DNA of 64,000 nt. Source: Rhizaria sp. SCN 62-66. Taxonomy: Eukaryota. Shown here piece by piece: positions 5,851-36,900 of the stretch. The stretch's first letter is position 1. Every line of letters starts with the position of its first letter. The notes below the pieces were generated by a model. That model ran no database searches. It worked only from the letters and a program-made list of their open reading frames with translations, and was not told the origin of the DNA. The translations under genes and the position numbers were made by a program. Location of the stretch: NCBI GenBank assembly GCA_001724265.1, contig MEDY01000009.1, positions 1 through 64,000 on the forward strand, given 5' to 3'.

Positions 5851-6327
5851 ATTGAGAGTGAGTTGCGCAGAAAAGCGCTGACTTTGGTATGTAGAATGTC
5901 TCTAGTGCCTCTTCTAGCGTAGTTTCGTAGTAGTGCTGCTGCAAGTGATAGGAGCAAGGGAGGGAAGATCGCAAAGAAGATACATGAGCGACAAAGATAG
6001 ACTCACATAATGTGGAATAAATATAATACGAAAACATGTTCTTAAAATACAAATTCACTTGTGTCATTTGTGCTGACGGAGTACTGGACGTAGTCTATTC
6101 TAATTGATGTTCGTAGTTGTGAACCTTAACGGTGATCACGTCTCGCCAGTCGTTCGTCGAATTGTATGCACCCCGCATTAACACATCCGTCTGCAGAGAT
6201 TTTGGTGGTTGTAGACGGTTCAGCCGAATATTTAACTATATTCATCAAATATTGTGCCTAACAATTATGTTTACCCCTCTATAGACCTACTTTACCGAAG
6301 ACCGACACGTGAGCATCCTACGCCGCC

Positions 6328-8712
6328 ATGTTCTCCCGCGCTCGCAGCCGCGCCACGCGGTTGCTGTCGACCCCTGGTCCGCTGACCTCACGCCTGCACA
6401 CTACACTCACAAACCCTAACGCGGCCGCCGTCTTGCCGCGTATCTCCCGCGCCTTCAGCAACACAGCCGCGACGCAGCAGCCAGTCGCTAAAACGAAGCC
6501 CTTTTACATCACAACACCGATCTTCTACGTCAACGGCGCGCCGCACATCGGACACCTGTACACGGCGCTGCTGGGCGACGCAATGGCGCGCTGGCACCGC
6601 GCGTGCGGCCAGCCGACGCATCTTATGGGTGGCACCGACGAGCACGGCGGCAAGGTCGCCGAGGCGGCCGAGAAGGCGGGAGCGGCGTCGGTGCAGGCCT
6701 TCTGCGACACCGTCTCTGCCTCGTTCTCGGACACGTGGCCCGTGTTCGACGTCCGCATGGCGCACTACGCGCGGACAACGGATGCGGCGCACAAGGCGCA
6801 GGTGCAGCGCTTCTGGCGCGTGTTGGCCGACCGCGGGTTTATCTACAAGGGCGCGCACGAAGGCTGGTACTGCCGTAGCGACGAGACGTTCTACCCCGAG
6901 AACCAGGTCGTCACCGCCGACGACGGCCGCAAGCTGTCGCCGACGAACCACCCCGTAGAGTGGGTGTCGGAGCCCAACTATAAGTTCCGCCTCTCGGCCT
7001 TCGAGGCGCCGCTGCGCTCGTGGCTGGTCGCGAACCCGTCCGTGGTTCAGCCCGCCGCGCGGTACAACGAGGTGATGGCCTTCCTCGACACCGGGCTGGA
7101 GGACATCTCGGTCTCGCGGCTCGCCAGCAAGGTTGCCTGGGGCGTGCCCGTGCCCGGCGACGAGGAGCACACAGTCTACGTGTGGCTCGATGCGCTATCG
7201 GTCTACCTTTCGTCCGCGTAGCACTTGGACGCGCTGAGTGCCGCAGAACCCGCGAACAGCGCGAACAGCGATGTGTTCACCGACGTCGCAGCGATTGACG
7301 CGATGGCCGCTGCTGATGCCAACGCTGCGCTGTCAAAGAGCGTTATGGAGGCTGTCAACGCAAGCCTGCGCGCCAACAGCGTCACTGCCGCCGCCGCCGT
7401 TGTCATCGACGACGGTGCGAATGCTTCGAATGAAGCTGCGCCGGCGACGGCGACGGCGACGTGGCCCGCTGACATCCAGGTGGTGGGCAAAGACATCATC
7501 AAGTTCCATGCCATCTACTGGCCGGCATTCCTGCTCGCAGCGGGGCTGCCGCTGCCGCGGCGCATCGTCGCGCACTCCCACTGGACCAACGGCGGCGTCA
7601 AAATGTCCAAGTCGCTGGGCAACGTGCTCTCGCCCGCCGACATCGCGCACGACTTCCATGGCGACACCGACGCGGTTCGCTACGGGCTGCTGCGTCACGG
7701 CCCGCTGCGCACCGACGCGTCGTACGACCTGGCGGCGCTGCATGGCGACGTGGACGCGGATCTGGCCGACGCGCTGGGCAATCTCGCCCTGCGTGCCGTG
7801 GCCCCCGCGCTGCTGCCCGGCGGCGCGCTGCCCGACCCGCTCGCGCGCCATCGGCCCTACGCACCCGCCGACACGGCCACGACGGACGCGGTACCGCTGC
7901 CGGTGCCCGCGCCGCTGGACTTGTTACTCTTCGCGGCCCACCCGCAGCAGCACGCGCACGGACACGGCCACGGACACGGTCACAGTGGCCACAGCGACGC
8001 TGCGGCTGCGGCTGCTGCTGCTGAGTCTGCAGCTGTGGCTGCCGCTGCTGCTGAGGCGGAGGTTGGCACGAGCGTGCAGTACGACGCGCTGCCCGCGTCC
8101 GTGCTCGCGTCCTCTGCGTGGTTCACGCCAGAGACGGGTCTGGCGGCCGTGGGGTGCGATGCCGCGACGGTGCGCCTGATCGGCGAGATCAACACGCTCG
8201 TCGCGGGCGTCGCGCACGAGCTGGACCGCGGCAACACCGAGGGCGCGCTCCTGCGCATCGCGGCCGTGACCCGCGGCTGCAACGTGCTCATCTCGGACTG
8301 GAAGCCGTGGGAGCTCAAGGCGCGGCCCGAGGCGCGCGCGCAACTCGACTGGTATCTTTACTGCGCGATTGAGACCGTGCGTGTTGCCGCGCTGTGTCTA
8401 CAGCCCTTCACGCCCGCCATCGCGGCGCGCCTGCTCACCGGACTGGGCGTCAAGCCCGAGCACCGCAACCCCGTGCGTTTCGGCCGCTTCGGCTACCGGC
8501 CCGACGCCGCGCCCGCCTCGGTCAAGCTGGCGTTCGCCGAGAAGCCGTTCGAGAAGCTCGCCGCGCGCAAACGGGAGGGCGAGCTGTCGCCCGCGGAGGT
8601 CAAGGCGGCGCAGCACGCCGCCAAGAAGGCGCGCAAGGAGGAGGAGAAGAAGGAGAAGCAGGACAAGAAGGACGCGGGCGCCCAGCAGCAGCAAGGCGAG
8701 ATGAAGAATTAA
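6328..8712 (+). CDS. MARS2: Mitochondrial/bacterial-type methionyl-tRNA synthetase, ~794 aa, with an in-frame TAG at 7219-7221
   Basis: Arg/Ser-rich transit-peptide-like N-terminus. FYITTPIFYVNGAPHIGH, GTDEHG, WGVPVP and YVWLDAL lie before the TAG. GKDIIKFHAIYWPAFL, KMSKSLGN and the anticodon-binding region (KPWEL) follow it in the same frame. Ends in TAA. Confidence 0.93.
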
Positions 8713-9594
8713 GGGTGAGAAAATGGATAAGAGCACCTGACAGCAGGCAGGCACCCGCTTTGACACAACTTTGGCGGCGACGAAGGCGCTTGTGTGTCTG
8801 CCGTTATCATTATATGTCAATGCGAGCCTCCATCGTCGAGTCATGTTAAGGCTTAAAGCGCGAATGCACGATTTCACGAGTATTCGCAGCACAGTGCTTA
8901 TTCGGACTGACGTAACTAGTGTGTAAACGTGCATGTGTGTATTCGTGCAGTAGCTGTGAGGGTATTTATTTATATGGACCAATCTGGACACGCTAAGCAT
9001 ATGCTCTCAACTAAATGAAAACGTATATCAAAACATGCATTCGGTCGAACAGATTGTTTGTGTGTTCACTTTGTTAGGAGCATATTTAAGGCAATGTGTC
9101 AATACATAATTTAACTGGCTGAACTAATAACGAGTATATTGGAGGATCTACAAGTGTTAGTTGTGCAAGCGAGCCTTTAAGATATTTTAAGTTGGTGAAT
9201 TTTAGGAGATTCTTGTTAAAACGTGCGTCGTAACAAGGGCGACGAACGCTTCGTCTCTGTACAGACGTACATATTTGTCAAATGCACGAAAAGTAAACCG
9301 GTAACAAACGCATTTACAAAACCAAACTCAATACGTAAAGCTTAAGTTAGTATTGCGTGATACGCGGAAATATGTCGCATTCATAATGAGAAGAGTGGCG
9401 ACAGATGCCATCTCTTTGGATGTGTGTGCGCAGAAGTTGTGTCTTTTTCAGGTGTTATTTCAATAAGATAAATGTACAGAACAGATGTTGTAATGATAAC
9501 AAATGTGGGGATGTGCTACTAACGGTTCTTATTATGGTTCTTGTGTTGTGATGTGATGAAGCCAAGACCTCGCGGTTCCTCAGGAGCTGATGAG

Positions 9595-12500
9595 TTACCG
9601 CCCCAGCTTGGCCTGCTTGAGCAGCGTCGCAAATGCAGACGTCTTCTTGAACCGCGAGAGACTGTCCTGTGACAGCAGCCGGTAGATCTCGTCCTCCGCA
9701 GCCACGAACACGGCCGGCGACAGCGTCGCGGGCGCGCCCTTGCTGTCGGACATGGCGCGCAACACGGCCGTCTGCACGTCTCCGCGCAGGTTCACCTGCT
9801 GCGGCGCGTCGTTGCGCACAAACCGCGCGCACAGCGCCTCCGCGTCGGCGTACATCGCTTCGGCGGCCGCGGCGTCGCTGGCGAAGTCCGTGAGCGGGGA
9901 GCTCGCGCTGGCGCTGTGCACGCTGCTGGCCGTCGAGCTGGCCCACGCGCGGAGGCGGAACGCGCGCGCCTCGCACCAGAACTCGTAGTTCTCGACCGAG
10001 TACTCGCGGCGCAGGTGCTCGATAAAGGCGTCGCGCGCCTGCGGCACGTGCAGCAGGTACGCGAGCGGGACCGCCTCGTCGAACTGCACCGGCTCCAGGA
10101 TGCTGGCCGGGAACGAGCCCACGCCGTAGGGCGCCACGGCGGCCGCGGCGGCGGCGGATGCGGCGCTGGGCGATGACACCGTCACCGTGGAGCCGGCGCC
10201 GCTGTTGCTGCCGCCGCTGCCGCTGCTGGTGGCGGTGGGCGAGACGTTGGTGCCGTCGCCGCCCTCGCCCGCCGCCGTGGCAATCATGCCCGCTACGGCG
10301 TGCGGCGACAAAGGGGCCGTGATGAGCTCGCCGAACCAGACGACGTCGCCGCACGGGTAGCGCGCGATGCCGGTAAGCATGTCGGCCTGCTCGGTGGACG
10401 CGGCGGCCGCGGCGGCCACGGCGGCGGCCGATGCGCTGAAGCTCGACCGCGGCTGCGCAGACAGCGACGGCGGCGACTGCGCAGAGATGGAAGCGGGCGG
10501 CGGGGGCGGCGGCGGGGGCGGTGAGCCCCCGGGGACACCGGCCCCGTTGCTGCTTGGGCTATTATCGTCGGCAGAGTCGACGCCGTCGCGCACGAGTGAC
10601 AGGCGGTGGCCCACCGTGGCAGCCGCCGCGAAAACGCGCGCGCGCGCCGCAGCGTCCTCGGCAGCGCCCGCGGAGGGAGTGGCCAGCCGGCCCGAACGCA
10701 GCGCGGCGATGGACGCCGCGGCGGGGCGCGCGGGCAGCGCGGGCGGCGGCCCACTGCCACTGCCGCTGCTGTTGGTGGGCGTGACCGCGGCGCCTGATGT
10801 GCGCGCGCCCGCGGCGGCGGCGGCGGCGGCAAGGAAGCCCGCGTGCGTGTGGCCCGCAGAGAAAGAGCCCGTGCTCACGCGCAGCGAGTGCGGGGCCGAC
10901 ACGGAGCCGGAGCCGGCGCCGCTGCCGCCGCTGTTCAGGTGCACGTTGTGAGACCCACCGGGCCCAAGGTTGAGGTTCATGCCCCCGCGGCGCACCACAG
11001 AGCTCCCGCTTTGACCGTCAGTCGTCGCACCTGCACTAGCACCGCCACCAACGGCGGCAGCGGCGGCGGCGGCAGCGGCGGCGGCGGCAGCGGCGGCGGC
11101 GGCGGCGTTGGAGCGCGCGCGGTGCAGGAACAGCGGCGACAGCGCGCGCAGCGACGCAATTGTCGAGTCAGGCGACGGCGTCAGGTCCGTGACGAGGACG
11201 TAGGCGCCGTGGGGGATGATCAGGTCGTGTCTGAGCGCGCCGCTGGCGAGCGCGGAGCGCGCCTGCGAGATGGACAGTGAGGGCGACATGGGCACAGCGG
11301 GCGCTGTCGCCAGCGAGTGCGCCGACTGTGACACCGGCGATGTGGCGCGGGACGAGTCGCCCGAGTCGGCGCCCGCGGCGGCGGCCGCGGCGGCTGACAG
11401 CATGCCCGCGGAGGCCGCGGCGGCCAGCGCGGTAACCGCGGCCCTAGCCGGGTTGAGCATGTCGGTCACCGCGAGCCCCGCGAGCGCGCCGCACGTGCAA
11501 AGCGAGGCCGGGTCCGCGACATGCACCGAGGGCGCAGTGCCCGTCGCTGTCGAGGGCGCGTCGTGGGCGCCCGAGATGGAGATAGACATCGACGCGGCGC
11601 GCGTGAGCCCCACCGGCGAACCCGTCGCGCCCACCGCCGCAGCCGTGCTCGCAGTGCCCGCCGCAGGGGCCGCCGTGGCCGCCGCGGCGACCGAGGTGCT
11701 GCGCGCGCGCGCATTGGGGGCCGCGGGGCAGTGCGGCGCGTGGTAATAGGGCAGCTGCTGCGCGGGCGTGAAGCCGCGCACGCAACGGTACACGGGCGGA
11801 ATCACCAGCGGCTTGAGCGGCTGCGGCGGCGTCGTCGTCGCCGAGCCCGCGGCCGTGGCGCCCGCGGTCGACGTCGCGCTCGCCAGCGGGGACAGCCCGT
11901 CACCGGAGTGGATCGTGCTCAGCGGCGCCGCCAACAGCGACTGTGGGACGGCGGGCGCGGAGGACGGCGCGTCCGGCGCCGCCAGCGTGCTGTGCACGAT
12001 GCCCATTGCGCCGCCGGCGCTGCTGCTGCTGCTGCCGCTGGCGTAGACGCTCGAGGTGCCGGGCTTGCCTGAGGAGAAGGCGAGCGAGAGCGCGCGCGAA
12101 ATGTCGGACCCGGCGGGCGACAGCGCGGCGGCCGCGGCGGCGGCGGCCGCGGCGGCGGCCTCGGGGTCGAAGCCCAGGTGCTCACGCCACGCGTCCGAGT
12201 CGAACGCGGCCGCCGGACAGGGCAGCAGAGCCTCCACAGGCGCAGGCTGCGGGGGTAGGCCGTGCGCGGCAACGATGGCTCCCGCAAAGCCCGCGATCTC
12301 GCCGTTGGCGTCGAGGCGCTTGACCGCGGCCGAGAGGTCGCCCGTGGCAGCGGTGAAGTCCACCGCGGCGGCGAAGGCGTCCTTGTAGCGGGTCAGCGCG
12401 CGGTCCGTGGTGCTGAGGCGCGCGCGCTCGATGGCCTCCATGCGGCGCATGAGCGCGGGCATCACGGCGCTGGTGTAGTCGCGCTGCATCGCGGCCGTGG

Positions 12501-14401
12501 CGGCAACCAGCTCCTCACACTTGGCGAACTCCTTCTGGATCTGCTGACATAGTGACGTCCGCTTCTTGTCCGCAGCCACGAGCTTGCGCTCCACGTTCTT
12601 GCGCGTCTTCTCGTCCATCACAATCACGTCGCTGCCGCCACCAACGCCGCCAGAGCCCGAGCCCGAGGCCGAGGCGGGCGACAGCGTCACGCTGTGCATC
12701 GCAGCGACCGAAGACGCGATATTACCGCTGCCGGGGATGGAGCCGAGCGCGCCAACCTCGCCGCCGCTGCTGTTGGCGTCGCCCGCACCCGCGCCCGCGG
12801 CGGCCGAGGTGGGGTACATGACGCTGAACACGCGCTGCAGCTCCCCGTCAGCCTCGACCAGCAGGCGCCACGAGGCGTAGCAGCGCTGCCGCTGCCGCGC
12901 CACCTGTTCTTTCGCCTTGAGCAGCTCCGAGGTGGCGCGCATCTCCTCGCTCACAATGCCCTTGCGGATCGAGTCGAGCTCGCGGTGCGAGGCGGTGGCC
13001 GGACCCGCGACGTCGGTGTCGAGCGCGCACGCCACGGCCTCGGCCTGCCGCGCCGTCGCCAGAGCCGTCGCTATCAGCGCGCCGTGCGCCGCGGCGTGCG
13101 ACGCGCAGCGGTCGATGCCGTGCTGTTGCAGTGCTTTCTCGCCGCTGCTCTGCTCGGCGCGCGCGTCCGCAGCCAGGTCCTTGCCGAACTCGGCCAGCCG
13201 CGCAGACATCTTTTTCGCGAACCCGGCAAGGCGCTTGAGCGAGTGCAGTCCCGCGTCGACCTGCGCGTGCACGAGGGGGAACTTATGGTCCAGCGTCCCA
13301 GGGTACGACGCGTGCTGCTGCTGCTGCTGGGAGCTCTTGTTCGAGGGGCTGATGGCGCGCCAGTTGGGCTTGCCGCTGCTTGGCGCCGCTGTGTTCACGG
13401 CCAGGCCGGCCGCCGGGCCCATCCCCGGACTAAAGTCCCCCGACGTGAAGGTCATCGTGCGCTGGCGCGCCGTCGCCGGCAGCGCAGGAGCTGCGCCAGC
13501 GGCCGTAGCGGCAGCGGGCTGGTTGCCAACCGGGCTACCACCGGCGCTCATGGCGCTCGAGCTCGCTGCGTTGGCGGTCGAGCCCGCCGATGATTGCGAG
13601 TTAAGCTGCGTGAAGGACTGCGAGAAGGACGCCGAGGACAGCGACGACGGGCCCGACGTCAGCGCGAGCGGAGTGGGCGTGAAGCCGGGCGTGCCCGGCG
13701 CGGTCGGCGCCTGGGCCTGGGCCTGGGCCTGCGACTGTAAAGGGGTCGAGGGCCCGCCGGCGGGCGGAGGCGGCGGCGGCGGCGGCGGGGCGGTCACTGT
13801 GCTGTTGTTGCGTGCGGCGCCGAGCAGCGGAGACGGAGACGAGCCGCCAGTGAGCACGCTGGAGCCCGCGCCGAGCTTGCTCGCCGTGGTCATAACGCTG
13901 CCGCTGCCGCTGCTGGTGGAGTGGGCGAACGAGGCTGAGACGCCGCGGGTCGGAGAGCCAAACAGACTCGACGCAGTGTGGCTACCGCTGGAACCCGCGC
14001 CAGCCCCCGTGCTGGAGCCGGTGACAAAGTTGGCGTTAGATGACACGGGCACGAAGGACGAGGACGACGACGACGACGACGACGAGGACGGAGGCACGTA
14101 GGTGGAGTACTGAGCCGAGGCCGAGGCGCCGGTCACGCTCGCGGCGCGCGCGGCCACGCTGGGGCCAGAGCCCGGAACGTAGAGAGAGCCGGAGCTGGAG
14201 CTGGAGCTCGAGCTTGCGGAGGTGGAGGCTGAAGCCGAGGTTGACGCGGAGCCGGTGGACGAGAATGGAGGGTGCGGCGCGGGGGACGCGGTGGTGGCCG
14301 CAGCGGCAGAGGCAGTGACTGAAGGGCGGCTGAATAGCGACGACGCGCGCGGCAGCATCACGGGCGACGGGCCCGAGGTGGTGGAGTTCGTCGCAGTCTG
14401 C

Positions 14402-14479
<78 letters not shown>

Positions 14480-14940
14480 AAGAAGCTGTTGCGAGGGAAC
14501 AGAGAGCCTGAGCTGGGCTGTGCTGACGATGACGCAGCGCCAGCGCCAATACCAGCGCATGTGCCGGCATCAGAGGCGGCGACGGAGAGGCGCTGGCCCT
14601 GCACAGCCTTGGCGATGGACGCTGCGGCGGCGGCGTTCTGCCCCGAGAAGCTGCCCGTGGCGCCCGGTGGGTGGTTTTGCTGCGAGAAGGACGCCCGCGG
14701 CGCGAGCCCGCCGGGCGGGGGACCCATCGACATGCCGGGCACGGCCGAGAGCGCGTTCACTGACAGACGCTGTGGCAGCGGCGCAGAAGTGGCGGAGCTC
14801 GAGGGCGCGGCGGAGGGTGTGACCGTGTGCAGGGGCGCTGTGGGGGCGGAGGGCAGCGGCAGTGGACGGTCCGCGGAGGGCGGGCCTGAGGTGGAGCCCG
14901 CGCGGCCAGGCGGCCACTCGGCCGAGGCGGGTTGCGACAT
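9595..14940 (-). CDS. F-BAR + fragmented SH3 + C-terminal RGS domain protein, ~1781 aa
   Basis: RGS motifs: AFIEHLRREYSVENYEFW, APQQVNL, EIYRLLSQDSLSRFKKT. F-BAR-like helices (VDAGLHSLKRLAGFAKK...MPALMRRMEAIERARL). SH3-like pieces including GSFPASILEPV. N-terminus is low complexity with polyQ. Ends in TAA. Confidence 0.8.
14404..14478 (-). repeat. Pure (CAG)25 trinucleotide tract encoding polyQ
   Basis: 25 uninterrupted CTG units on the + strand, matching Q25 in the ORF. Confidence 0.95.
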
Positions 14941-15581
14941 CACACTGCGCGGTACAGGTGAAGTGTCGTAGTAGTAATTAGTCGACAGAGCTTGTTAAGG
15001 TCGCTGCACAAGCGCATGGGGAAGTAGAATAAGAGCGTTGTGAGAGGAGGGTGGGGCTGACAGAGAAGGGGGGGCGCGCGTGCCCAAGCGCGTGTCTGAG
15101 TACAGGGACTCACAGCGCCGTTTGCAGAAAGAGATATTTTGTGTCATAACGTGTTTGCAACCAAAGTAGTATATTTCAAAAGTGTCGCTCAAATGTGCAT
15201 GTGTGTGACTTAAACCAGACACCCAAAAGATGAAATCTCTGGTCGGACTCCTTCGTCATGGTGGTTCTCAAAAATTCCGGGGCGAGGTCGAACCGTTACC
15301 ACCAAACATTACAAGCTCAATGATGTTCGCTCCTTCAGAGAGCGGCAACAAACGTGTCGTTCTAATATGTTATGTAGACATGACGCATTTATTCGGTCAT
15401 TGACTTGCATTTGCTGCTGACGGACGTCTCCCGCAGCACTACACCTAGAAAGCACTTCCTGTTTCGTTTCCTTAACAGCTCCCCCTCTTTCTTTATCAAC
15501 GCCATTTATGTGGCTGTAACTACCACTCATACGCATATTGTACAACCTCGCGTCATATTTGCTATTTTCGCTACATTGTAG

Positions 15582-17386
15582 ATGGAGTCTGACGGCACCA
15601 GCCAGCTGGCTCTCCGCGCACAGCTTGCACCCGACTTCCAGCAGACTCAACCGCGCGGCCTAGCCAAGTTCGTCTCCGACCCGGCGCCGCACATCCCCGT
15701 GGCGGGCAACAAGTTCTACGCCGACGGCGAAAGCGTTGCCCAGGCCACCTCGACGCAGCCGCGCGACGATTTCTCGCAGATGCCTCTCGATGAGGCCCGT
15801 TGGCGCGCGTCGTTCCAGCGCCAGCCCGGCGTGCAGATGGCCGCCCCGGGCTTCGTCGGCGCGCCGTTGCCTGCCGGCGACTACCGCCACGGTATCCGCA
15901 CGCATATGGGCAGCGACAAAGTCGGCGACGCGCTTAGCACTGCGTACACGTCGTCCCTGGGCGAGTACATCCATCAGCAGAACGAGGCCGTGTACGCGTC
16001 GTCGCGCTTCGAGCCGCTGGGCACCCACTACACGCGCGGCCACAAGCTCCCCGAGGGCTACTACAACGATCCCGCGTACCGCTTCGGCGTTAAGACCTCG
16101 TCCAGCGAGTCCGCCAAGACGGTTATGTACGCGCCACAGCCGCGCGCGGCGTCTTCCCGCGACGGGCCCGTCCCCCAGGGCACCGGCGTGGCCGCCGGGC
16201 TCGACGCCGAGGCCGCTAAGCTCGACCCGCAGTACGTCAGCGAGCGCGAGATCGCGCGCCAGACCACACGCCAGTACGTCTGGCCCGCCGGCTTGGACCC
16301 CACGCAGCACCGCTTCGGCCACGCCGCGCAGCATGCCGACCTGACGGCGAGCCACGGAGTGACCCCGTGCCTTAAGTTCGGCACGCCGGCGGCGCAGGAG
16401 CAGACGCGCATCGGCTCGATCCGGCCGCAGATGGTCGCTAACGTGTGGGGCAACGAGGTCGGCCGCCGGCGCCCGCTCTCGGATGCCATCGCCAAGCTGG
16501 GGCCTGACTTTGTGTTCGGCTCCCGCGGCGCGGCTGTGCAGGTGACCGCCAAGGACAGCATCTACGGCGGCTACACTGCGGATGAGCAGCGACCCGACCG
16601 CGACCTGGGCGCGTCAGTGCGCAAGAGCCAGCCGCTGTACAACGAGCCGCACTCGCTGACGCAGACCGTAGGCGGCGTCACCGTCGCCATGCCCTCTAAC
16701 CAGGTACGTAAGGAAGACTGAGTTAAAAATGATTAGATATATCGTTCTAAAGTGTTGAACTGCACATTACTTTATGCAGATGCGTATCATATTTACCTGA
16801 GATATGGTTCCAAGTCTTTTTGTTTTTGTCCATCTCATTACTAACATTGTTTTCTATTGCATGCTTTCTCTTTTGCTTTCTTCTATCTTAGGTCGCGTTT
16901 GGCGCGCCGACGATCCGGACGGATCGTTCCGAGCCCGTCAAGCGCTCTGTGGCGGACGACCGCAACTACGGCAACTAGCCCACTGCGGCGGATCTGCTCA
17001 TGCCTTCGGCCTACCTGCCCATGGGCGTCTCGCACAGCGACTTCGCGCGGCCGCGCCCCGCGTCGCAGGTGCGCGCGCTCATTAAAGCCGCCGCGCTGTT
17101 CCCCGCGGTTGTCAACAACGACGGCGCGTGGGCCGCGCTTACGGCACAGGTGGCGCCGCACTTCGCGCAGCCGGCGGGCGCGGTGGAGCCCGTCTTCTCG
17201 GTCGACGCCGCGCGCCAGGTCGCCTCGGCCATGACCAACCCCGCGCGTACGGCCCGCGTCTCGCCGGAGCAGGTGCTGCAGGTGCAGCGGCAGCCGCCCG
17301 CGCCCGAGACGGTGCCGCACAACGTGCTCAAGGAGCTCCCGCAGGAGGACAAGGTCCGCATCATTGCCTCGCGCTACCGCCGCTGA
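15582..17386 (+). CDS. EFHB: EFHB/CFAP21-like axonemal protein; exons 15582-16703 and 16892-17386; in-frame TAG at 16976-16978; ~538 aa
   Basis: Exon 1 has EAVYASSRFEPLG...LPEG...FGVKT...SAK. Exon 2 reads VAFGAPTIRTDRSEPVKRSVADDRNYGN*PTAADLLMPSAYLPMGVSHSDFARPR, matching the EFHB C-terminal motif FGxPTIRxD...NYG-[DE]-E...LLxP...DF. Ends in TGA. Confidence 0.8.
16704..16891 (+). other. Spliceosomal intron (188 nt, phase 0)
   Basis: Donor CAG|GTACGT, AT-rich body, TACTAAC branch-like site at 16839-16845, pyrimidine tract and TAG acceptor. Splicing joins in frame to the conserved motif. Confidence 0.88.
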
Positions 17387-17809
17387 ACAAACCAACGACA
17401 AGCAACTGGAAAAAAACGCCGAAGTCTCAATAGACGATTGAGGACAAGTACATGAATTGTTGTGTGCTATTTTTGTGATATGTGTTGTTCTATAGCTGAT
17501 ATTGAGAAACACACAATGTCTCGAGATAGCAATCGGGCCATGTTGAGATTAAGACCAGCTAAAGCTTGTGTTGCGCTGTCACTCCCCCACTTGCTAATTC
17601 TCATCATGCAAACAAAATAATGAATACAAAGCTCTACTAAACGATCACAAAATTAAATCTTTTGTATTTGTAATATATACACCTCAATCAAAACCCGTCA
17701 TCCCGTTTACTCTATCTATATTATGATAAATCGTTTGTTTGTTTGTTGTTTAGTGTGCGGTCAGCGTGCGAACTGAACTACACTGCTGCATATGGTGTTG
17801 GTTCGGCAC

Positions 17810-18904
17810 TTACATGAAGATGCCCTTCTCGAGCGAGTGCTCCTTAAAGCCCTTGTGGGGGCAGACGACGGCCTCGTAGAGCATGACCTCGCTGGCGACC
17901 TCGACGTCCTCGCCCAGGAAGCACTTCTCGACGTGGGCCCACTTCGCGATCTTGCTTTCCCAGCCCACGATCGAGGTCTTGACGACAGAGTGCGCGTCCA
18001 CGGTCGTGCCAGCCATGAGCGTGCAGTTGTTAAGCCGCACGCCGTCGCCGATGACGCAGCCGGGGCCGATGACGACGTCGGGGCCGATAGAACAGCCCGC
18101 GCCGACCTTGGCAGAGGGGTCGATGACGACGTTGCCTGTGATGCCGGCACCACGCGCCAGTTGCTCAGGCTTGCGGCGCGCGAGCATGGTGAGGTGCAAG
18201 TGCGTGCCGATGAGGAAGTCCTTGGGCTGGCCGACGTCCATCCAGTAGCCCGGCAGGATCATCGAGTGGACCTGTTCGTCGACGACCATGGCGGGGAAGA
18301 TCTGGCGCTCGATCGACATGGCCACGGGCTCGGTCGGGATGCGCGACAGCACGCTCTTGTTGAGCAGGTAGATGCCCGCGTTGATCTTGTTCGAGGGCAG
18401 GTTTGTGGCGCCGGGCGCGGGCTTCTCGAGGAACTGGATGATCTTGCCATCGGCGTTGGAGACGACGAGGCCGTACTTAGAGGGGTCCTCGACGGGCGTG
18501 ACGAGGATCGTGCCCTCCTTGCCGTGGTCCTTGTGATAGTTGAGCATCTCCACCAGCGGGAACTCGCAGGCGACGTCGGAGTTGAGCATGAAGAAGGGCG
18601 CGTCGTCCTCGAGCAGCTTGGCGCGGCACAGGCCGAGCGGACCGGCGGTGCCGAGGGGCGTCTCCTCGATCGAGAACACGACCTTGATCTTGTACTTGGT
18701 CTCGACGTTCTTCATGAAGTCCATCATAAGCGTGGGCATGTGGCCGACGGCAAGGATGATCTCCGTCACGCCCGCCTCGACCAGTGCCGCGATCTGGTGC
18801 TCGACGATGGCGACGTTGACGAAGGGCACGCAGGGCTTGGGCTGCGAGAAGGTGAAGGGGCGCAGACGCGTGCCGAAGCCGCCGACGAGGATAACCGCCT
18901 TCAT
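17810..18904 (-). CDS. GMPPB: Mannose-1-phosphate guanylyltransferase (GDP-mannose pyrophosphorylase beta), 364 aa
   Basis: MKAVILVGGFGTRLRPFTFSQPKP, ETPLGTAGPL, DPSKYG, FLEKP, KINAGIYLLN, SIERQIFP, GYWMDVGQPKDF and a hexapeptide-repeat C-terminus. True start is ATG 18904. Ends in TAA. Confidence 0.95.
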   Translation of the reverse strand: MKAVILVGGFGTRLRPFTFSQPKPCVPFVNVAIVEHQIAALVEAGVTEIILAVGHMPTLMMDFMKNVETKYKIKVVFSIEETPLGTAGPLGLCRAKLLEDDAPFFMLNSDVACEFPLVEMLNYHKDHGKEGTILVTPVEDPSKYGLVVSNADGKIIQFLEKPAPGATNLPSNKINAGIYLLNKSVLSRIPTEPVAMSIERQIFPAMVVDEQVHSMILPGYWMDVGQPKDFLIGTHLHLTMLARRKPEQLARGAGITGNVVIDPSAKVGAGCSIGPDVVIGPGCVIGDGVRLNNCTLMAGTTVDAHSVVKTSIVGWESKIAKWAHVEKCFLGEDVEVASEVMLYEAVVCPHKGFKEHSLEKGIFM

Positions 18905-19572
18905 GGAGAGTAAGAGAGGGTCTGTGGTAGACAAAAAAGTAGCGTGGTGATGAAGACATATGCATTCAGTGAGCGAAAAGCGCCTTGGGCGGGGTTGTAA
19001 CGGAGGACGATGATGCTGACAGTGCCGGATGGTGTGACAGCGAAAGAAGGGCTTCAGATCAGGATATAACGGCAGCTGCAAGCAAAATTATTAAGTTGCT
19101 GAAAACAACAAAAATGTTTTCAACCTGAGAAGAAATAACTGCTCTCATCAGCGGAACTCACAGTCTACAGCAAACACGGATAGATCGAGTTTCGTCGGAT
19201 GACCGATAGACCAGCAAAATGCCTTTTTTCGGTCTCGTCGGTTGTGAGCGTGGAAGAGAAAGAAGAGGTCAAAGAAGAACACTCTTGTGGTCAGGTTTTG
19301 AGTGGTCCAGATCTCATCTGTTTCACGTTGTTTTCTTATCTCGTCCAGTGTCCATATTTATTTCGATGTGTACTGCCTAAATCTTTTAGTCAGATCCCCT
19401 GAAAAGATGCACATGTCCTTGTATCTCCAGGCTGCTTGTGATGAGAGATAGGTCGTTTGAGACCCAGAGCTGTTGGCATCACCAACCTCACTTGCACTCA
19501 CTTTCTCACACCGACTCATCATTTGACCACGATTTATCACTTTGCTCCACCTCCTCATAGACAAGGGTACCC

Positions 19573-20502
19573 ATGCAGTTTCAGCAGGCACCCGTTGAGA
19601 CCTTCGAGGGTCCTTCCCAGCGCACCACGTACGTTCCCACAACCACCAACAACCTCCCTTTCTCCCACAGCCCTGCTACAGCCCCACTATATCATCCAAG
19701 CCAGCTCAAACCGCGGTATCCCCATATTTCCTACTAGATATCTTATGTTCATCTTACACCATGCTCACTACCACATCTCATCTTCACCCTCATATGCCTT
19801 GCTTTTCTATCCATCTTCGACAGCGAGCCCGTGGTTGTTGGCGCGTCCGTGCTCGCGATCACGTACAAGGACGGCGTGATGGTGATGTGCGACACGGGTG
19901 CCTCCTACGGCTCCCTCGCGCGCTTCACCAACATCGAGCGCATGAAGCAGGTCAACGCCAAGACGCTCGTCGCGGTCGGCGGTGAGCACTCGGACGCACA
20001 GTTCCTGGATCAGTTCTACCACGACGTGGAGCTGGAGGACTTCATGGCCAACGACGGCCACGTGCGCGCGCCCGAGGAGCTGCACTCGATTGCGTGCCGC
20101 GTCATGCATAACTACCGCTCGCGCGGCGACCCGCTGTGGAACCAGATCGTGACGTGTGGCATCTCTCGCCAGAACAAGCCCTTCATCGGGTACGTTGACC
20201 TCTACGGTACCAACCACGTCGATGACATCGTCGTGACGGGCTTCGGCATGCACATGGCGCTCCCGCTGCTGCGCAAGACGTGGCGGCCCGAGATGAACGA
20301 GGCCGATGCGCGCCAGGCGCTCGAGGACGCGATGCGCGTGCTCGTCTACCGCCATTGCCGCACCATCAACAAGTTCCAAGTCGGCATGGCGAAGGTCGAC
20401 GGTAGCATCACCATCTCAGAGCCCTACGCGCTCGAGACCAAGTGGGACTACAACCGCTTTGTCAACCCGCGCGCGCAGGAGGTCCCGCTGCCCCAGCTCT
20501 AA
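19573..20502 (+). CDS. PSMB4: 20S proteasome subunit beta-7 (PSMB4/PRE4); exons 19573-19628 and 19824-20502; 244 aa
   Basis: Spliced product reads MQFQQAPVETFEGPSQRTTEPVVVGASVLAITYKDGV...SYGSLARF...GGEHSDAQ...DPLWN...TGFGMHMALPLLR...RVLVYR. Ends in TAA. Confidence 0.93.
19629..19823 (+). other. Spliceosomal intron (195 nt, phase 2)
   Basis: GTACGT...CAG. Removal restores the conserved RT-x-x-P-x-V-x-G-x-SVL N-terminus of beta-7. Confidence 0.88.
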
Positions 20503-21004
20503 GAAAGCACGTGCGCCCTCAGAGCAGAGGCTGCAAACCACAGCGAGGAGCTGTGTTGCACGCCAACGCATGTGAACGTAGATTACAAAGATAAAGAATA
20601 GATTGGGTTCGTGTGAACCTGTGAATACTAGACCAACAGAAAAAGAACAGAAATAAGCTACAAAATACACAGTCAAACTTAATATCGACACTTGCATCCA
20701 TACATGGTATCTATTGTTCGGCTTTATGCCATTTCAGACACCCGCGTGACTGAGACACGTTGCAGAAGATCGGACCAAAAGCAGACTACGAGGCACATTT
20801 TAGAAACCAAGATTTCGGGTCGTGGTCATCGTCAAATAAGTTTCGGCTGCTTTGCACGGAACGCAACTTATTGTTTTCAAACGGTTATTTCTTTTATTTT
20901 GTATAAACCCCTGTTTCATAGCGATTATCTCTCCGGAAGAATATCGCTCGTTGACTGCATAATCAAGCAGGCTGTCACTTGCTCCAGCCGCGCTCTCTTA
21001 CCCC

Positions 21005-24000
21005 ATGCAGCTATTCCGCGGCATCACTAAGGCACTTGCGGGCGTCGCCGATGCGGCTACAGGTCCCTCGAACAAGTACTCCGCCGTGCACGTCGCCCCG
21101 ACCCCGCTGCAGCACTTGCCCTTCGTGGTCGACCCCCTGCACCAGCCCTCGGCGGCAATATCGTCGACAGGCTCTCCCAGCACAGCAACCGTGACCGATG
21201 CGTCGGACCCTGGGGCAGGCAAAATCCGCTGGGTGTGTGACGACGAGGTGGCGAACTGCCAGACGTGTGCGGCTCCGTTCACGGCCTTTTTCTCGCGCCG
21301 CCACCACTGCCGCGCGTGTGGCCAGGTCGTGTGCAGCGCCTGCTCCCGCGGTCGCCGCGCGCTGCCGCACCTAACCCGCTCCCGCCGACGCGAGCGCGTG
21401 TGTATTGAGTGTCAATGCGAGATTGACTGCGTGCGCCGCGGCGTGGACATCGACGCCATTTTCCACTTCATCGACCGCTACGTGGCAGAGATGCGCGGGA
21501 TCTCATCCGCCATCGCGACGCCGCCCACGGCCGCGGACGCGGCGCGCGAGTCGGCCTGGCTGCGCGCTTTCTTCGCGACGCTGCACGCGAGCTTTGCTTC
21601 TGCGGCCGCGCTTTCGGCGCACGCCCCCGACGGCGACCTCATCATCACCGAGTGCGCCGAGCCCTCGCCCTCGCATACAGCCGCCGTCGCCGCAGACGGC
21701 GCCGCGTTCCGGGCGCTCGCCGCGCCGTCGCAGGTCCGCGCCGCAGTCGCGCTTGTTACCTGGGTGCTTGCCGGCGACGACGGGCGCGCGCAGGCCGCCG
21801 CCGCAGCGGCGCAGGCACCAGCGGCCACGGCCAGTGCCAGTGCCAATGCCAGTGCGACTGGTGTCACGTCGCCGTTCACTTCGATCGCACTATCCCAGTC
21901 GGCCAGCAACGTGGCAGCGCAGCCGTCGTCGTCTCCCAACGGCGGCAACGGCGGCTCTGCGCATAGTCATTTGCTGACAGTGCTTGAGGGCCGCGCGCTG
22001 CACCGGCTGCTGTCGTCCATCTCGTCAGTCTACGTCGCCGAAGCCGTGGCCGAGTGCGTGGCCGCCGCGGCGGAGGCTTCGCTCGCTGCAGTGGCCGCGC
22101 TGCCGCCGGCGCCCACGCCCGCGCCGGCTGCCGACGACGGCGAGAGCAAAACCAACGGTGGGGAGCTGGAGAGCGACGTGACCGGACTCGACGACATCAC
22201 CTTCTCCGAAGACACTAATACTACCGACAACGGCGACGCCACGGTGGTCTACTGCACATGCCCCGAGTCTGCCGCGGGCGAGAGCGACTCTATTGGCTCT
22301 GGCCCCGGCTCCGGCTCCGGGGTGGGCTCGTGCCCCGCGTGTCGCGCGCACACCGCGCTGCTGCGGCGTCTGCAGCGCACCATGTCGCGCACCGTCGTCG
22401 CGGCCTCGCACTGCCAGCGAGCGGCGCAGACGCTGCGCGCGGGCACCGCGGGCTTCATCGGGCCCGTCGTGCTCAGCAACGACGTCGGTGCGCTCGCCGC
22501 GCCCGCCGCCAACACCCTGTGGGGAGTGCTGCATCAGGCCCCGCAGACGCGCGCCGAGGCCGCCGCCGCCGTCGCCGCCTCGGCTATGACAACGGCTGCG
22601 CCTGCTACGGATAGCTCGCTGGGTGAGAGCTCAGCAACGTTGCCTTCTGCGAGTGCGGATAACGCCGCTGCCGCGTCTGTCGCGCCGTCGTTCCCGCTGC
22701 AGCGCCTGCTGGTTGTGACGCCGGGCCACAACCCGCTCATCGTGCTCACCGGCTTCGTGCGCCCCGTCGACTTCTGCGGCGTCTATCAGACGCTGCCCCA
22801 TAGTGACGAGGCGGGGGACCCCGGCTGCGACCGCGCCATGCGCCGGCGACTGGCGCTCGTGCTAGGCGCTGAAGCATTCGCCAAGGCCGGCGCAGTGTCA
22901 CACCAGACTGCGCCGCTGATGAGCGCCCTCAAGCCGCTGCTCTCAGCCGCGTTGTGTGGTGCTCAGACCGCGAACGCTGCCGGCGCCAACGCCTACTCAG
23001 CGGGCTCCTCCGCGACGTCGCCCGTGACGGCCTCCGGCAGCAACCTCGCCCCCGCGCAGCAGCAGCAAGAGTCCGTCATGGTCGACGCCGTCGCCGACAT
23101 CGCTAGCGGCAGCACAGCGCTGGCGGCGCTCCCACGCGCGCGCGTGACGCTGGCGAACCGCCACGCGTCGCTGCTGGCCAGTCTGAGCGGCGTGGCGATC
23201 CGGTTCATCACGCCGCAGACCGGGAGCCAGGCCGCGGGTGACGACTCGGCCTCGTCGCGGTCGACCGCAGGCAGCAGCATCGGCAGCATGCTCAGCGGCG
23301 GCGGCGGCAGCGCGGGCGCGCACAAGCACCACGCTGTCGCCGTCCCGCACCGCGGCGACAGCAGCAACAACGGCAGCAGCAGTGCAAACACCACAGTGAC
23401 CTCGTGGACCGCGCCCGCGCTTGCGCTCGCGGTGCCGCCCTCGGCTGCCGCGGCCGCCGCCTCCGCTGCGGCAGCCGCGGGGGCCGAGCACGTGCCCACA
23501 GTGCCGCTGCCGACCTCCGTCTCGCACGCGGTCACCGCGCCCGGTTCGAGCCACCCGGCCACCGCGAGCGCGCTGGACTCGCCCGCGCTGGCACTGGTGT
23601 CGTCGCCCTTCTCGGCCGTGCCCGCCACCGTGGGCTTCGTCCCCAGCTCTGCCGTCCCCGCCGCGGGCTACGGCAGCGCCGGCAGCGGGGGCGACGGCAG
23701 CGGCTCCGTGTCGGTGGCCGTCGACCCTTCGGCCGCGAGCAACAGCAGCGGCAGTGGTCTGGTTGCGCCGACGCCCACCGCGGGCGCCTCGGCCCGGCGT
23801 GCGTTCGGCGGCGGCCGCAGCAGCCTCTCGGCCTCGCGCCACGGCCACGGCAGCGACGGCGCGCGCTTCATGTCCCCGCCGCAGGCCGGGCTGCGCGCGT
23901 TGCAGACGTGTGGGCTGGCCGGCTCCGTCTTCGCTTGCGCGCTCGCCGTGCCCGTCGACGTCGCCGGCGGCGTCAAGAGGCTCGACCCGCCGTCGCCGCT

Positions 24001-27000: not shown

Positions 27001-28222
27001 CGTCGCGCAGCAGAGAGCGCTTGCCGCGCCCATGACCAGTGAGGCCGGTGACGACGTGGATGAAACTACCGGTGCTGACGGGTCTAGCAGCGTCGGCTCC
27101 CCTGCCTCCGCACCCGCCGCGAGCAGCAAGACTGGCTTTAACGGCGCGCGCGAGTATCCTTACGCGACGGCCGTTATCAACGTCGTCGCCGCGCTCGCCC
27201 GCATGCTCCCGCTGCCGCGCTTCACGCCCTCAGCCGGCTCCGGCGCCGCGGCCGCCGCCGACACGCTTGGCGTCCGCCGCTCGCGCGCGCCCGGCCGTGG
27301 CGGTAGCATGTGCGGGGGCGGCGCGGGCGAGTACACCGAGATCATGCTCGAGTCGCTGATGCCCGGCTCGGCGCCGTGGCTCGGCGTGGCTGACCCCGCC
27401 CACTGCGAGCCCGCGCTGCCGGAGCCCTTCGCGCCCACCGCCGCACAGGCCGCCTCCTAGGCCGCCGCGGCCGGTGGCGGCGGCGGCGGGCTGTTCGCGG
27501 AGTCGGCCGACGCGGACGCCGTGCCGGTCGGCGCGGCCGCCGTGCGCGCGACGGCCCACGCCGTGGCCGACGGCGGCGCCGCCACAGACGCCGTGCTTGA
27601 CGCCGCCTTCGCGCACTCGCCGCCGGACCTGGTGCAGTACCCGCTGTTCCGCCTCATGACGCTGCCGCGCGCGGCCCCGCGGCGCGCCCCCGCGCCGGGC
27701 ACCACGCGGCTTGTGCCGCACGTCGCGCTCTCGCCCTCGATGGTCTTCTTCGAGGTCGTCACGCAGACCGTCGCTCTCACCGACGTCATCTTCGCGCGCG
27801 TCGGCGCGGGCTACTTCACTTTCCCGCAGGTGCTCGCGGCCGCCGTCACGCGCTGCAGGCTCGCGCTTGCGCGCGCGCCCGTGACGCTCGAGGCTTTCGC
27901 CGAGATCCTGTGGGCGGACGAGGCGCCCTGGCTGCGCGCCGCCGCCGAGGTCGCAGTTTGCCCGCTGCAGAACGCGCTGTGCGTGGACTATGGCGCTGCT
28001 GCTGGCAGTGGTGGCGCCGGCAGTGGCGCGGGGGCGCCGCAGGCGGCCGTGGACGCGGTTGGCGCGTTGGCCAAGGCGCTAGCGCTGGCGGCGCCGCCCG
28101 CGGCGGAGGACTTTGCGTTCTTCCTCGAGACGGACGGGCTGGTGCAAGCGGTGGCGCCCCGGCCCGCAGTGCCGGCTTTCGTGGTGCCCACGGTTTTTGA
28201 TCTCGGCGACAGGCTGGTGTGA
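21005..28222 (+). CDS. FYVE zinc finger + ELMO/CED-12 domain protein, ~2405 aa, with an in-frame TAG at 27458-27460
   Basis: [18 protein letters not shown]....[49 protein letters not shown] and [11 protein letters not shown] before the TAG, then [30 protein letters not shown] after it in the same frame. Ends in TGA 28220-28222. Confidence 0.85.
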
Positions 28223-33946: not shown

Positions 33947-36900
33947 ATGTTCACATGTGCAGCTACAACTTTTGCGCGCGTTGTGGGGACGCTTTCTCTC
34001 TGTATTGCTATGATCCAGGTACTAGTACTACCGATGCTGAACGCAATGGTGATTCAGTACCTCCCAACTTCACCTCGCAACTATTTCCGTCTCTCAATCG
34101 CAGAGGTTGACCGCTGGCAGCTTCCAACTTCGTTGCTCACTGTGTTAGTTACGCCGTATTCCAGCGGGAGATCATTCGAATTTGACACGGACCGCAGCTG
34201 CGTGCTGCAAAACTCTGACGCACAGGTCGTACACTCATCACCCAATTCGATCACATTCGGCTTTCCGGGGAAGGATCCGTTTCAAATTCTTCCCACGGGG
34301 AAGGCCAGCTTTGAGCTTCGTTGCAGCTTTGCCGGACGACAATTCGAGGGGCTAAATGACGGTGTTGTAACTGCGCAAATCACAGCACTACCCTCACTGT
34401 AGGAAACCGTCTCGTTCAGCACAGTGCGAGTCACGTCAAACATCATCACATTGCCAGCCTACACCAAGACTGGACTCTACGGCGTAATGCCAGCGTGGAC
34501 AAGCTTGAGTTCGTTCTCAATTGATTTACGCATGGCGTTAAACTTCCAAAGCTCCACGCCACTTCCGAATGACTTCATAGAACTTAGCTTTCCCAGTCTA
34601 CTGAATGCAGAGTTGCTCACGTCGTGTTGGTATGCACCAGAAATGGTGCGTACACCGCGCTACCGTACCAAGTTCTTACGCGTACCGGGCGAAAATAAGA
34701 TTCGTCTCTACTTAAACCCAATGGACTCCGATCTTGAGGCGCTTGTTCGTCCGCCGTTGCGACCAGACTCGGACATCAACGGCCACCGCAGCATTATCTG
34801 CTCTGGCTTCACGGGTGGACCCGAACAGAACACAGGCTCAGTAGACTATTACCCAATTGTGAATTATTACGGAGGCAAAAATAATGTAAACCTTGCAGGT
34901 TATTACCTCCCGACACGCTTGTATTCGCTACCATGGTTCCCTCCTACGGTCTCCAGTGAAGTCAGGTCTGCCCCACTCGGCGCAGTGCACACTGTTGTTT
35001 TCACATTTATCTGCGCACAAGCCATGCTGCAACCTATAATGCGCGTTCAAACGCCGCATATCGAGCACACCGGGCTTGCATTCCTTGGATCACCAGTGTG
35101 TACTGCGGCGTTAGACCAAAGTGATGCTCCAATATCAAACATCATTACTTCTTCATATGCATTCACCGTTGACTTGCACACTGTTGCCATTGCAGGCAAC
35201 CCAACAGCGTCGCTCGTTGTTACGTGCAAGTTTCGCTTTACTGGCGCCTTTGGCTTCACACCAAAGACACTGTCATTTGACTTAAACGCGCGCCTATCCC
35301 CACAGAACGGCGGCGACAACGATGTTGTGATATCGGTCCCACTAAGCGTTACATCGCGAGCTGAGATCGGCGCAACGCCTATTGCAGCAACTCTTTCTCC
35401 TGCTCCCCTATTTGATGTGCCTGTGCAGCTCACGGTTACTGCTTCAATCAAGCGCACGTACCTTATCGACGCGCTGCCCGTGCTCGCGCTATCTGTCTCA
35501 CCTTCACGGCTGATGCCATTGAATGCAATTTGCACGCTTAAGGTGAACGACATTGTGCTTATTACATCCGAAGAGTTGAAGCTTGACGCATATGCATTGT
35601 TTGGCATGAAGCCTTCGCTGATAGGACAGGTTCCCACAGCAGGCGAGTACGTTTCCCTTGAGATACAGTGCAGTGCCGTGACGATTCCGTCAACAGTGAA
35701 CGAACACGTAATGCCCGTGGTCACCCTGCGCGTGCTGCCAGCAATAACGTTCTCCTCTGGAGTTGATTTGCAGGCTTACGAAGTCGAACGCACACTAGCT
35801 GTTATCCCATACCCGACAGTTTCAGCCTCTCCATCTCTGCTGTCAACACGAGTTTTCGCAGACAAGAATGGCGACTTTATTTTTAACGTTGAGATATCAA
35901 TTCCAGCGCTTACGACGGATTTGTACATTGTTGACATTGTTACAATTACAGTCGTGCCACAAAGCACGCGCGACTACGGCACATTTAAACGCGTAGACGT
36001 TCAAAACCCCGTGCGTATGTGCGTAGTCATGAGCACAGCAACAGGCGAGAGGTTTCGCACAGCAACACCTTTAGGGTCATCTTATGTGCTCAGCGAGCCT
36101 GTTCCAACTGCAATCACGTTTGCACTTGCCGACGACATCCCCAAAGGAACTGCGCTCACTGTGCTGTGCCCTCAGTCGCTTGAGAAAACTCGCGACAACA
36201 CGGCTGATGTCACGCGCGGCACGTTGCGCACAAACATTGTGACGTTTGCCGTGACGCGGTCAACAACGAGCATGCTAATATACACATCGTTTAAGGCAGC
36301 AGAGCCCCAACCAGCAAGCAATTTTGCGTTGATCAACACAATCCAGTTCTTGCATGATCAAGTTGGATATAGCAATGTGTTCAATGCTCTTTATCACAAC
36401 CCGTCTCAGATTAACGCACAACTTGCACCGTTGCAGCCGCTAAGCGTGCGAGTGTCTGCAACCGTTTCGTGGTTCGACCAATATAATTCAGTGCCGGTCT
36501 GCAGTCTGTTGATTAACTCTCACGAAATTGTATCCGTCAGTGTCTCGATTTTGTCTGACAAATCACTGCAAATTTTTGGAATTAACAATGCAGCGCCGCA
36601 TGTAGAAGAGGTTTTACAATACCAATGGTACGACATTTACACTGGATGCGCCATCCGCGTTCGATGCTCTGGCATTGTACTTCTTACAGCTCCAAGTCAG
36701 ATTCCGCAGTTCTCACTTGATACATTACTCCCTGCCGTAAGCACCGGGGTGTTCGAGAAAATAACTGTTGTGCGCAGCATTACCACGGCACCCCGCATGT
36801 ATATGAACATTGCCTCGCTGGCTTTACGTAAGGTAACTCTCTCAACAGTATTGCCGTTTCCAGCACTGTTTGGGTTGCACCTAGGCTCGCTTGGCATTGA

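Follow-up and report, generated by a model that had tools for sequence, protein, structure and literature searches.

The contig MEDY01000009.1 (assembly GCA_001724265.1, deposited as Rhizaria sp. SCN 62-66), of which positions 1 to 64,000 of the forward strand form the window analysed here, carries a two-exon gene of the ciliary FAP21/CFAP21/EFHB family that has an in-frame TAG in its best-conserved motif. The organism very probably translates UAG, and the best overall reading of the codon, held with modest confidence from sequence comparison, is glutamate. Once UAG is granted to be a sense codon, glutamate is fairly probable, glutamine unlikely, and any other residue more unlikely still. The predicted amino acid rests on one informative alignment column together with a polymorphism between strains. 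In the proposed mechanism, UAG would be decoded as a residue, with UAA and UGA as terminators, and the TAG at 16976 would stand for glutamate as a G-to-T variant of the GAG of sister strains, a polymorphism that would then be silent at the protein level. UAG would be decoded by a putative tRNA with anticodon CUA that is charged with glutamate, and the release factor would have lost recognition of UAG or retained it only weakly.

Exon 2 of the gene translates as VAFGAPTIRTDRSEPVKRSVADDRNYGN-X-PTAADLLMP..., with X for the TAG codon, and continues to the TGA at 17384-17386. The assignment to the EFHB family, made in an initial annotation of this DNA, is upheld by both domain and structure comparisons. 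The Pfam family EF-hand_EFHB_C (PF25325) matches exon-2 residues 34-67, behind the TAG, above its cut-off (28.4 bits against 27, E=1.4e-6), with the match covering only profile positions 2-35 of 75; the same family is found in all eight homologues scanned, at 27.6-92 bits. Among solved structures, exon 2 aligns over residues 2-86 with the Chlamydomonas FAP21 chain 6u42_7K, ungapped across X (E=3e-12), as well as with 8g3d_1J (1.1e-8) and with mammalian EFHB chains (2e-6 to 2e-4). A near-full-length relative of 544 amino acids (aa), P0004, is similar to Chlamydomonas FAP21 across residues 36-466 (E=2.6e-31).

The window gene has in common with FAP21/CFAP21/EFHB of the ciliary doublet-microtubule structures (PDB 6u42, 8g3d, 7ung, 7rro) the C-terminal EFHB domain and the AFGxPTxRxD...NYG[DN]E block, and it resembles Chlamydomonas FAP21 (458 aa) in length and layout. 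Its C-terminal tail is rich in Ala and Pro, unlike those of the proteins in the solved structures. It also differs from the animal EFHB proteins, which are 833-879 aa long, in having no canonical EF-hand pair that Pfam detects in exon 1, where no Pfam family was found at E<=1. Such a pair is not universal in the EFHB family, since six of the eight homologues scanned have no EF-hand match; of the other two, P0148 lies above the cut-offs and P0141 matches weakly, at 21.5 bits against 30.

The position of the TAG within the family is well defined. A phmmer search of 1.84 billion representatives returned 235 matches at E<=1e-3, and almost every alignment starts at query residue 2 or 3 and extends to about residue 65, covering both sides of the TAG. 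The initial annotation had described a TAG hidden in exon 2 within a conserved EFHB motif, at a column that should usually be acidic or amide and chiefly Glu, and had asked for an alignment of orthologues. The codon is indeed in frame, as codon 29 of exon 2, and the homology crosses it ungapped. When 151 homologues are aligned to the query, 149 of them drawn from the top 150 of the 235 matches and the other two being near-duplicates of P0005, the TAG column contains E 89, D 50, G 4, P 2, Q 2, S 2, A 1 and K 1, with an acidic residue in 139 of the 151. The closest relative, P0004, which is 69% identical over exon 2, reads NYGNEPTAGDLL and has E at the column, as does P0005 (42% identical over exon 2); in all, E occurs in six of the seven relatives read out. 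Glutamate also occupies the column in the solved chains of both Chlamydomonas FAP21 (...NYGNEPDA...) and Tetrahymena CFAP21A (...NYGDEKPA...), again without gaps. The earlier view that the column favours Glu or Gln is thus supported by the E/D majority, by E in P0004 and P0005, and by the codon found in sister strains.

This codon was observed in Logan contigs of four runs (X4, X5, X6 and X7) that were placed on positions 6000-25999 of the window, a 20-kb stretch with two of the window's four in-frame TAGs (7219 and 16976). X7 and X4 come from the same study, X5 from a different one. Cover is absent from X6 at 16976, and there is little or none at 7219 in X7, X5 and X6. At 16976, the T of the window is replaced by G in X7, a polyA metatranscriptome (one contig, 4.7/4.7 depth), in X5, a cDNA library (one contig, 4.79/4.79 depth), and in X4 (one contig, 4.61/4.61 depth). 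The presence of G in contigs of three runs from two studies indicates that near-identical strains carry GAG (Glu) at this position. The X4 contig spans 16548-17420, intron included, with just two letters different from the window, and it is the same species as the window with GAG at the codon. Runs X1-X3, which contain every sampled word and span three years in two studies, have the T allele. TAG at 16976 is a strain allele and is not fixed in the species. The strains differ by about 0.1-0.2%, with 26 differences listed over 20 kb, and the six replacement differences among them are conservative or lie in tails and presequences. A 128-aa open reading frame (ORF), P0003, is stored on seven contigs; it is no proof of the T allele, because a gene caller could choose the same ATG on a GAG contig. 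The GAG codon of the sister strains is new with respect to the initial annotation, as is the fit of RNA-derived contigs to the splice acceptor at 16891.

The second of these results bears on whether the codon is in the mature message at all. The AG of the TAG (16977-16978) is an in-frame potential acceptor, as had been pointed out in the initial annotation and is confirmed from the sequence, and the annotation had proposed that splice junctions be used to choose between 16891 and 16978. Were 16978 the real 3′ splice site, the TAG and the preceding 28 codons would be intronic, the acceptor would be in frame and the intron would measure 275 nucleotides (nt). This is hardly tenable: the interval 16892-16975 is G+C-rich with a coding pattern of 0.64/0.54/0.86 by codon position, it encodes the conserved AFGxPTxRxD...NYG block, and a pyrimidine tract lies upstream of 16891. 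RNA-derived contigs also contain the codon. In X5, record 11 (406 nt, minus strand) places its letters 95-388 on 16408-16701; its first 94 letters, if placed on 16890-16983, put 16976 at eight letters from the end, which is the reported value. By this contig arithmetic, a junction 16701/16890 would remove 188 nt, corresponding to intron 16704-16891 with a two-letter ambiguity. Since the record fits this junction and reaches 16983, the TAG/GAG codon would be part of spliced RNA that uses acceptor 16891. In X7, record 27 ends at 16705 and leaves 14 letters unplaced, which agrees with the 16891 junction, and the RNA contig record 28 (16939-17265) begins upstream of 16978 and includes the codon. 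Nothing in the RNA-derived contigs of these runs supports acceptor 16978. Spliced cDNA is further seen at the proteasome gene, where X5 and X6 both lack the intron 19629-19823, the 195 nt that separate 19628 from 19824, at a depth of 36-42. Both confirmed introns, at 16704 and 19629, start with GTACGT, are AT-rich and measure 188 and 195 nt, next to exons of about 75% G+C.

The FAP21 codon is one of four in-frame TAGs in about 17,250 modelled codons of the window, a usage of about 0.23 per 1000 codons. In-frame TAA and TGA are both absent, partly by construction, as the ORFs are delimited by TAA and TGA. The 15 gene ends in the window, a small sample, comprise eight TAA, seven TGA and no TAG; if TAG normally ends 20-25% of genes, the estimated probability of finding none is about 0.01-0.035. 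A tRNA scan of the window found no tRNA genes, and an Rfam scan of the window gave no matches. The contexts that the initial annotation quoted for the other three sites are all present, with SA*HL at 7219, AQAAS*AAA at 27458 and PSL*ETV at 34400.

The site at 7219 lies in a gene for a mitochondrial-type methionyl-tRNA synthetase (MetRS). In its single frame of 799 residues, homology to solved MetRS structures covers residues 53-306 before the TAG and residues 357-510 and 621-759 behind it, so that the catalytic-core homology precedes the codon and the regions for KMSKS and anticodon binding follow it. The DNA around 7219 has no intron of the AT-rich or GTACGT type. The TAG is retained in the X4 strain, whose contig 6368-7408 differs from the window only at 6414, 6681 and 7173. 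An identical 297-aa MetRS fragment that ends exactly at the TAG is stored in a public protein collection on six contigs from three sources, and the 495-aa remainder is stored there on four contigs. This division reflects standard gene callers, which stop at TAG. Genes of this organism are stored in split form in public protein collections (P0003, P0276, P0279). According to the initial annotation, the FAP21 site was the only one of the four at an alignable conserved column. The MetRS site can be aligned as well, but at a column that is variable.

In the gene with FYVE and ELMO domains, the 253 codons behind the TAG still have G+C values by codon position that are typical of coding DNA (0.80/0.58/0.90), and it is not until after the TGA at 28222 that the AT-rich 3′ flank starts. 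The part behind the TAG has no Pfam match on its own, and the TAG itself is located in an Ala/Gly run. The last site interrupts a giant ORF, with 151 open codons before the TAG and 4220 behind it; at 50% G+C, such stretches would arise by chance with probabilities of about 10^-2.7 and 10^-82, respectively.

A number of observations weigh against UAG being read as glutamate. Each G call at 16976 derives from one contig per run at a depth below 5, although three runs agree. All of the RNA contigs come from GAG strains, and therefore no RNA or protein of a TAG-bearing strain is seen. Runs X1-X3 may be the source of the window itself, and they could be heterozygous for a null allele. The strain differences comprise five silent and six replacement changes, so that silence is not strongly favoured a priori and this ratio does not separate Glu from Gln. 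Random nonsense mutation of this codon usage would yield TAG in 61-64% of cases, and finding TAG at four of four interruptions then has a probability of about 0.15, which makes it weak evidence. As this control weakens part of the case, what carries the argument for a sense codon is coding continuity, the presence of the MetRS TAG in more than one strain and the lack of any TAG terminator. As for the amino acid, only the FAP21 site of the four is informative: the ELMO and giant-ORF sites gave no alignment, and the MetRS column is of no help because it varies among relatives, with R in P0275 (68% identical), L in P0277 (63%), and K, K, G and G in four others. A standard code, in which the TAG at 16976 is a nonsense allele of GAG in one population, perhaps heterozygous, and the other TAGs are likewise recent, would draw on several of these points, namely the GAG of other strains, a T allele found mainly in runs that may be the window source, and the preponderance of TAG among random nonsense changes. 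The FAP21 protein would then be truncated after 402 residues. This is nevertheless very improbable, since four null alleles would be needed in about 15 genes of one 64-kb window, the MetRS TAG is common to two strains and occurs on six contigs, 4220 codons are still open behind the giant-ORF TAG, and no gene of the window terminates in TAG. Quite improbable, too, is an incomplete reassignment, ambiguous or leaky, in which a near-cognate or weak suppressor tRNA would read UAG while the codon could still terminate in some contexts. Such a state would suit the rarity of in-frame TAG (four in about 17,250 codons) and the base after it, which is C at 7219 and 16976 and G at 27458 and 34400; a C just after a stop codon favours readthrough. 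Context-dependent codes exist (PMC4967479). For an essential MetRS and a 4372-codon gene, however, leaky decoding would carry a high cost, 4 of about 15 genes with a TAG is far above usual programmed readthrough, and none of the 15 gene ends uses TAG.

The remaining alternative accepts UAG as a sense codon but makes it glutamine, with Leu, Tyr, Lys or Ser as less likely meanings, in which case the window strain would carry an E-to-Q or other replacement. Precedent is on the side of glutamine, which is the commonest meaning of reassigned UAG or UAR in eukaryotes (PMC11687900) and the meaning of UAG-only reassignments in Iotanema, Protocruzia, Hartmannula and Trochilia (PMC5304391, PMC11687900). 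Moreover, GAG to TAG is a single step, a transversion, whatever TAG means, and TAG as Gln needs only an E-to-Q change; Q is found in 2 of 151 homologues at the FAP21 column, replacements are not rare among the strain differences (6 of 11), and L and K in the MetRS column of relatives would also suit other meanings. This alternative is unlikely all the same. At the FAP21 column, 139 of 151 homologues have E or D; the nearest relatives have E, as do the solved chains of FAP21 and CFAP21A, and the codon of the sister strains is GAG and not CAG. Whereas the six known replacements are conservative or confined to tails and presequences, a glutamine reading would imply an E-to-Q change in the best-conserved motif, at a column where Q is seen in just those two homologues. 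Glutamate requires no such replacement.

Comparison with known codes shows both the precedents for UAG as glutamate and the respects in which this case would depart from them. A tRNA(CUA) reads UAG and not UAA, according to PMC11687900. Codes in which UAG alone is reassigned and UAA stays a stop are described there and in PMC5304391: the meaning is Gln in Iotanema spirale, Protocruzia, Hartmannula and Trochilia (PMC5304391, PMC11687900), Leu in the rhizarian exLh and in phyllopharyngean metagenome-assembled genomes, and Ser in Scotinosphaera (PMC11687900). These codes have the same architecture as proposed here, with UAG as sense, UAA and UGA as stops and a tRNA(CUA) expected; they use Gln, Leu or Ser and never Glu, whereas here Glu is indicated, at a very low usage of about 0.23 per 1000 codons. 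UAG as Glu is described, together with UAA as Glu, for peritrich ciliates (PMC11687900) and Blastocrithidia nonstop (PMC12153298). In these organisms a former stop means glutamate as it would here, but both UAA and UAG are reassigned, while UAA terminates in the window. Another close case is one uncultured ciliate with UAA as Lys and UAG as Glu (PMC10553269; discussed in PMC11687900), in which UAG alone means Glu and is decoupled from UAA, as here. That ciliate retains UGA as its sole stop, however, whereas UAA ends 8 of 15 and UGA 7 of 15 genes in the window. The window further differs from it in its G+C-rich exons, its introns of 188-195 nt and the lack of ciliate features. No report of UAG as Glu with both UAA and UGA as stops was found in the literature searched, supplements being outside the search.

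That an uncultured, flagellated, non-ciliate eukaryote of wastewater and bioreactors uses UAG as Glu with UAA and UGA as stops is a proposal with about an even chance of being correct. The reassignment may be at an early stage, given that UAG is very rare and that TAG and GAG would be silent alleles still segregating among the strains. Reassignment of a nuclear stop codon is rare and the parting of UAG from UAA is rarer, which gives such cases a bearing on the co-evolution of release factors and suppressor tRNAs. If true, UAG as Glu in a non-ciliate with two working stops would represent an additional independent origin, and it would be one of the few chances to observe a reassignment at low usage that may be young, with TAG and GAG alleles present side by side in one species. 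There is also a practical consequence, in that standard gene callers split the genes of this organism at TAG. The features discussed are collected in Table 1.

Table 1. Exons and intron of the FAP21-type gene and the four in-frame TAG codons of the window.
Feature	Position	Strand	Remarks
Exon 1, FAP21/CFAP21/EFHB-like gene	15582..16703	+	374 codons; ATG 15582; last codon CAG 16701-16703
Intron	16704..16891	+	188 nt; GTACGT...AG; AT-rich, G+C 0.34-0.40; X5 contig record 11 fits its removal (arithmetic)
Exon 2	16892..17386	+	phase 0; 164 codons + TGA stop 17384-17386
In-frame TAG, codon 29 of exon 2	16976..16978	+	GAG in contigs of runs X7, X5, X4
In-frame TAG, mitochondrial-type MetRS gene (6328-8712, TAA stop)	7219..7221	+	PDB MetRS homology on both sides, one frame
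In-frame TAG, FYVE/ELMO-domain gene (about 21005-28222, TGA stop)	27458..27460	+	Pfam FYVE, ELMO_CED12
In-frame TAG, codon 152 of 4372-codon single-exon ORF (33947-47065, TGA stop)	34400..34402	+	open-reading-frame length

Two of the TAG-bearing genes have further unusual features. In MetRS, the TAG is the first codon of an Ala-rich insertion (7222-7450, plus strand) that follows the YVWLDAL...YLSSA block and is about 50-55 residues longer than in the solved MetRS structures and in the relatives P0275 and P0277; its third-position G+C is 0.72, against 0.88. The giant ORF is a strong compositional outlier, as its third-position G+C is 0.48 compared with 0.80-0.93 in all neighbouring genes, and it matches no Pfam family. 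Its product is rich in Ser, Thr and Val; by eye, it begins like a signal peptide, contains a Cys-rich module and has a hydrophobic stretch at the C-terminus. The N-terminal region gave no internal repeat match, and no homologue of the N-terminus was found among proteins of 789-2250 aa, which is weak evidence and applies to that length range only. An intron at 34019-34402 (GTACTA...TAG) that would remove the TAG of this ORF was considered and rejected, as the 128 codons concerned are open, share the composition of the gene and contain its recurring motif, in which a cysteine is flanked by hydrophobic residues (again noted by eye).

The stretch is present in bioreactor, wastewater and activated-sludge metagenomes according to a public run search, which indicates that its source is an uncultured eukaryote. 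Over the 64 kb, G+C-rich coding blocks (70-76% G+C, third positions 0.80-0.93) alternate with AT-rich spacers and introns. The eukaryotic genes include those for the mitochondrial-type MetRS, an RGS-domain protein, a proteasome subunit, adenylate kinase and a DUF229 protein, along with a CFAP43 fragment, GDP-mannose pyrophosphorylase (GMPP), and FYVE/ELMO, Frizzled/Fz and MA3 genes. The best named matches are about 55% identical for GMPP (chytrids and plants) and about 50% identical for MetRS (oomycetes). With MetRS as query, metagenome contigs yielded just two loci, both distant (43% and 40% identity); genome contigs gave no match to GMPP and only bacterial or archaeal MetRS with P0277, the MetRS relative. 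Neither collection yielded additional contigs of the organism or of close relatives.

Other genes of the window were noted in passing. A Frizzled/Smoothened-type seven-transmembrane (7TM) receptor with an Fz domain (Pfam PF01534, PF01392) is encoded at 55601-59170 on the minus strand and may be of use in placing the lineage. A second cilia gene, for a coiled-coil protein like CFAP43, is represented by its C-terminal part at 62279-64000 on the same strand and runs off the window end. The RGS-domain gene (9595-14994, minus strand) has 1799 codons with long poly-Gln, poly-Ala and poly-Ser runs; in its region, including 14330-14480, many contigs of other organisms or repeats pile up, with depth peaks at 10002-10668 and 12003-12669. 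Finally, X5 and X6 contigs give a junction between opposite strands at 18007-18231, inside the GMPP gene; this may have arisen as an artefact, of cDNA or of assembly, where a short inverted repeat lies.

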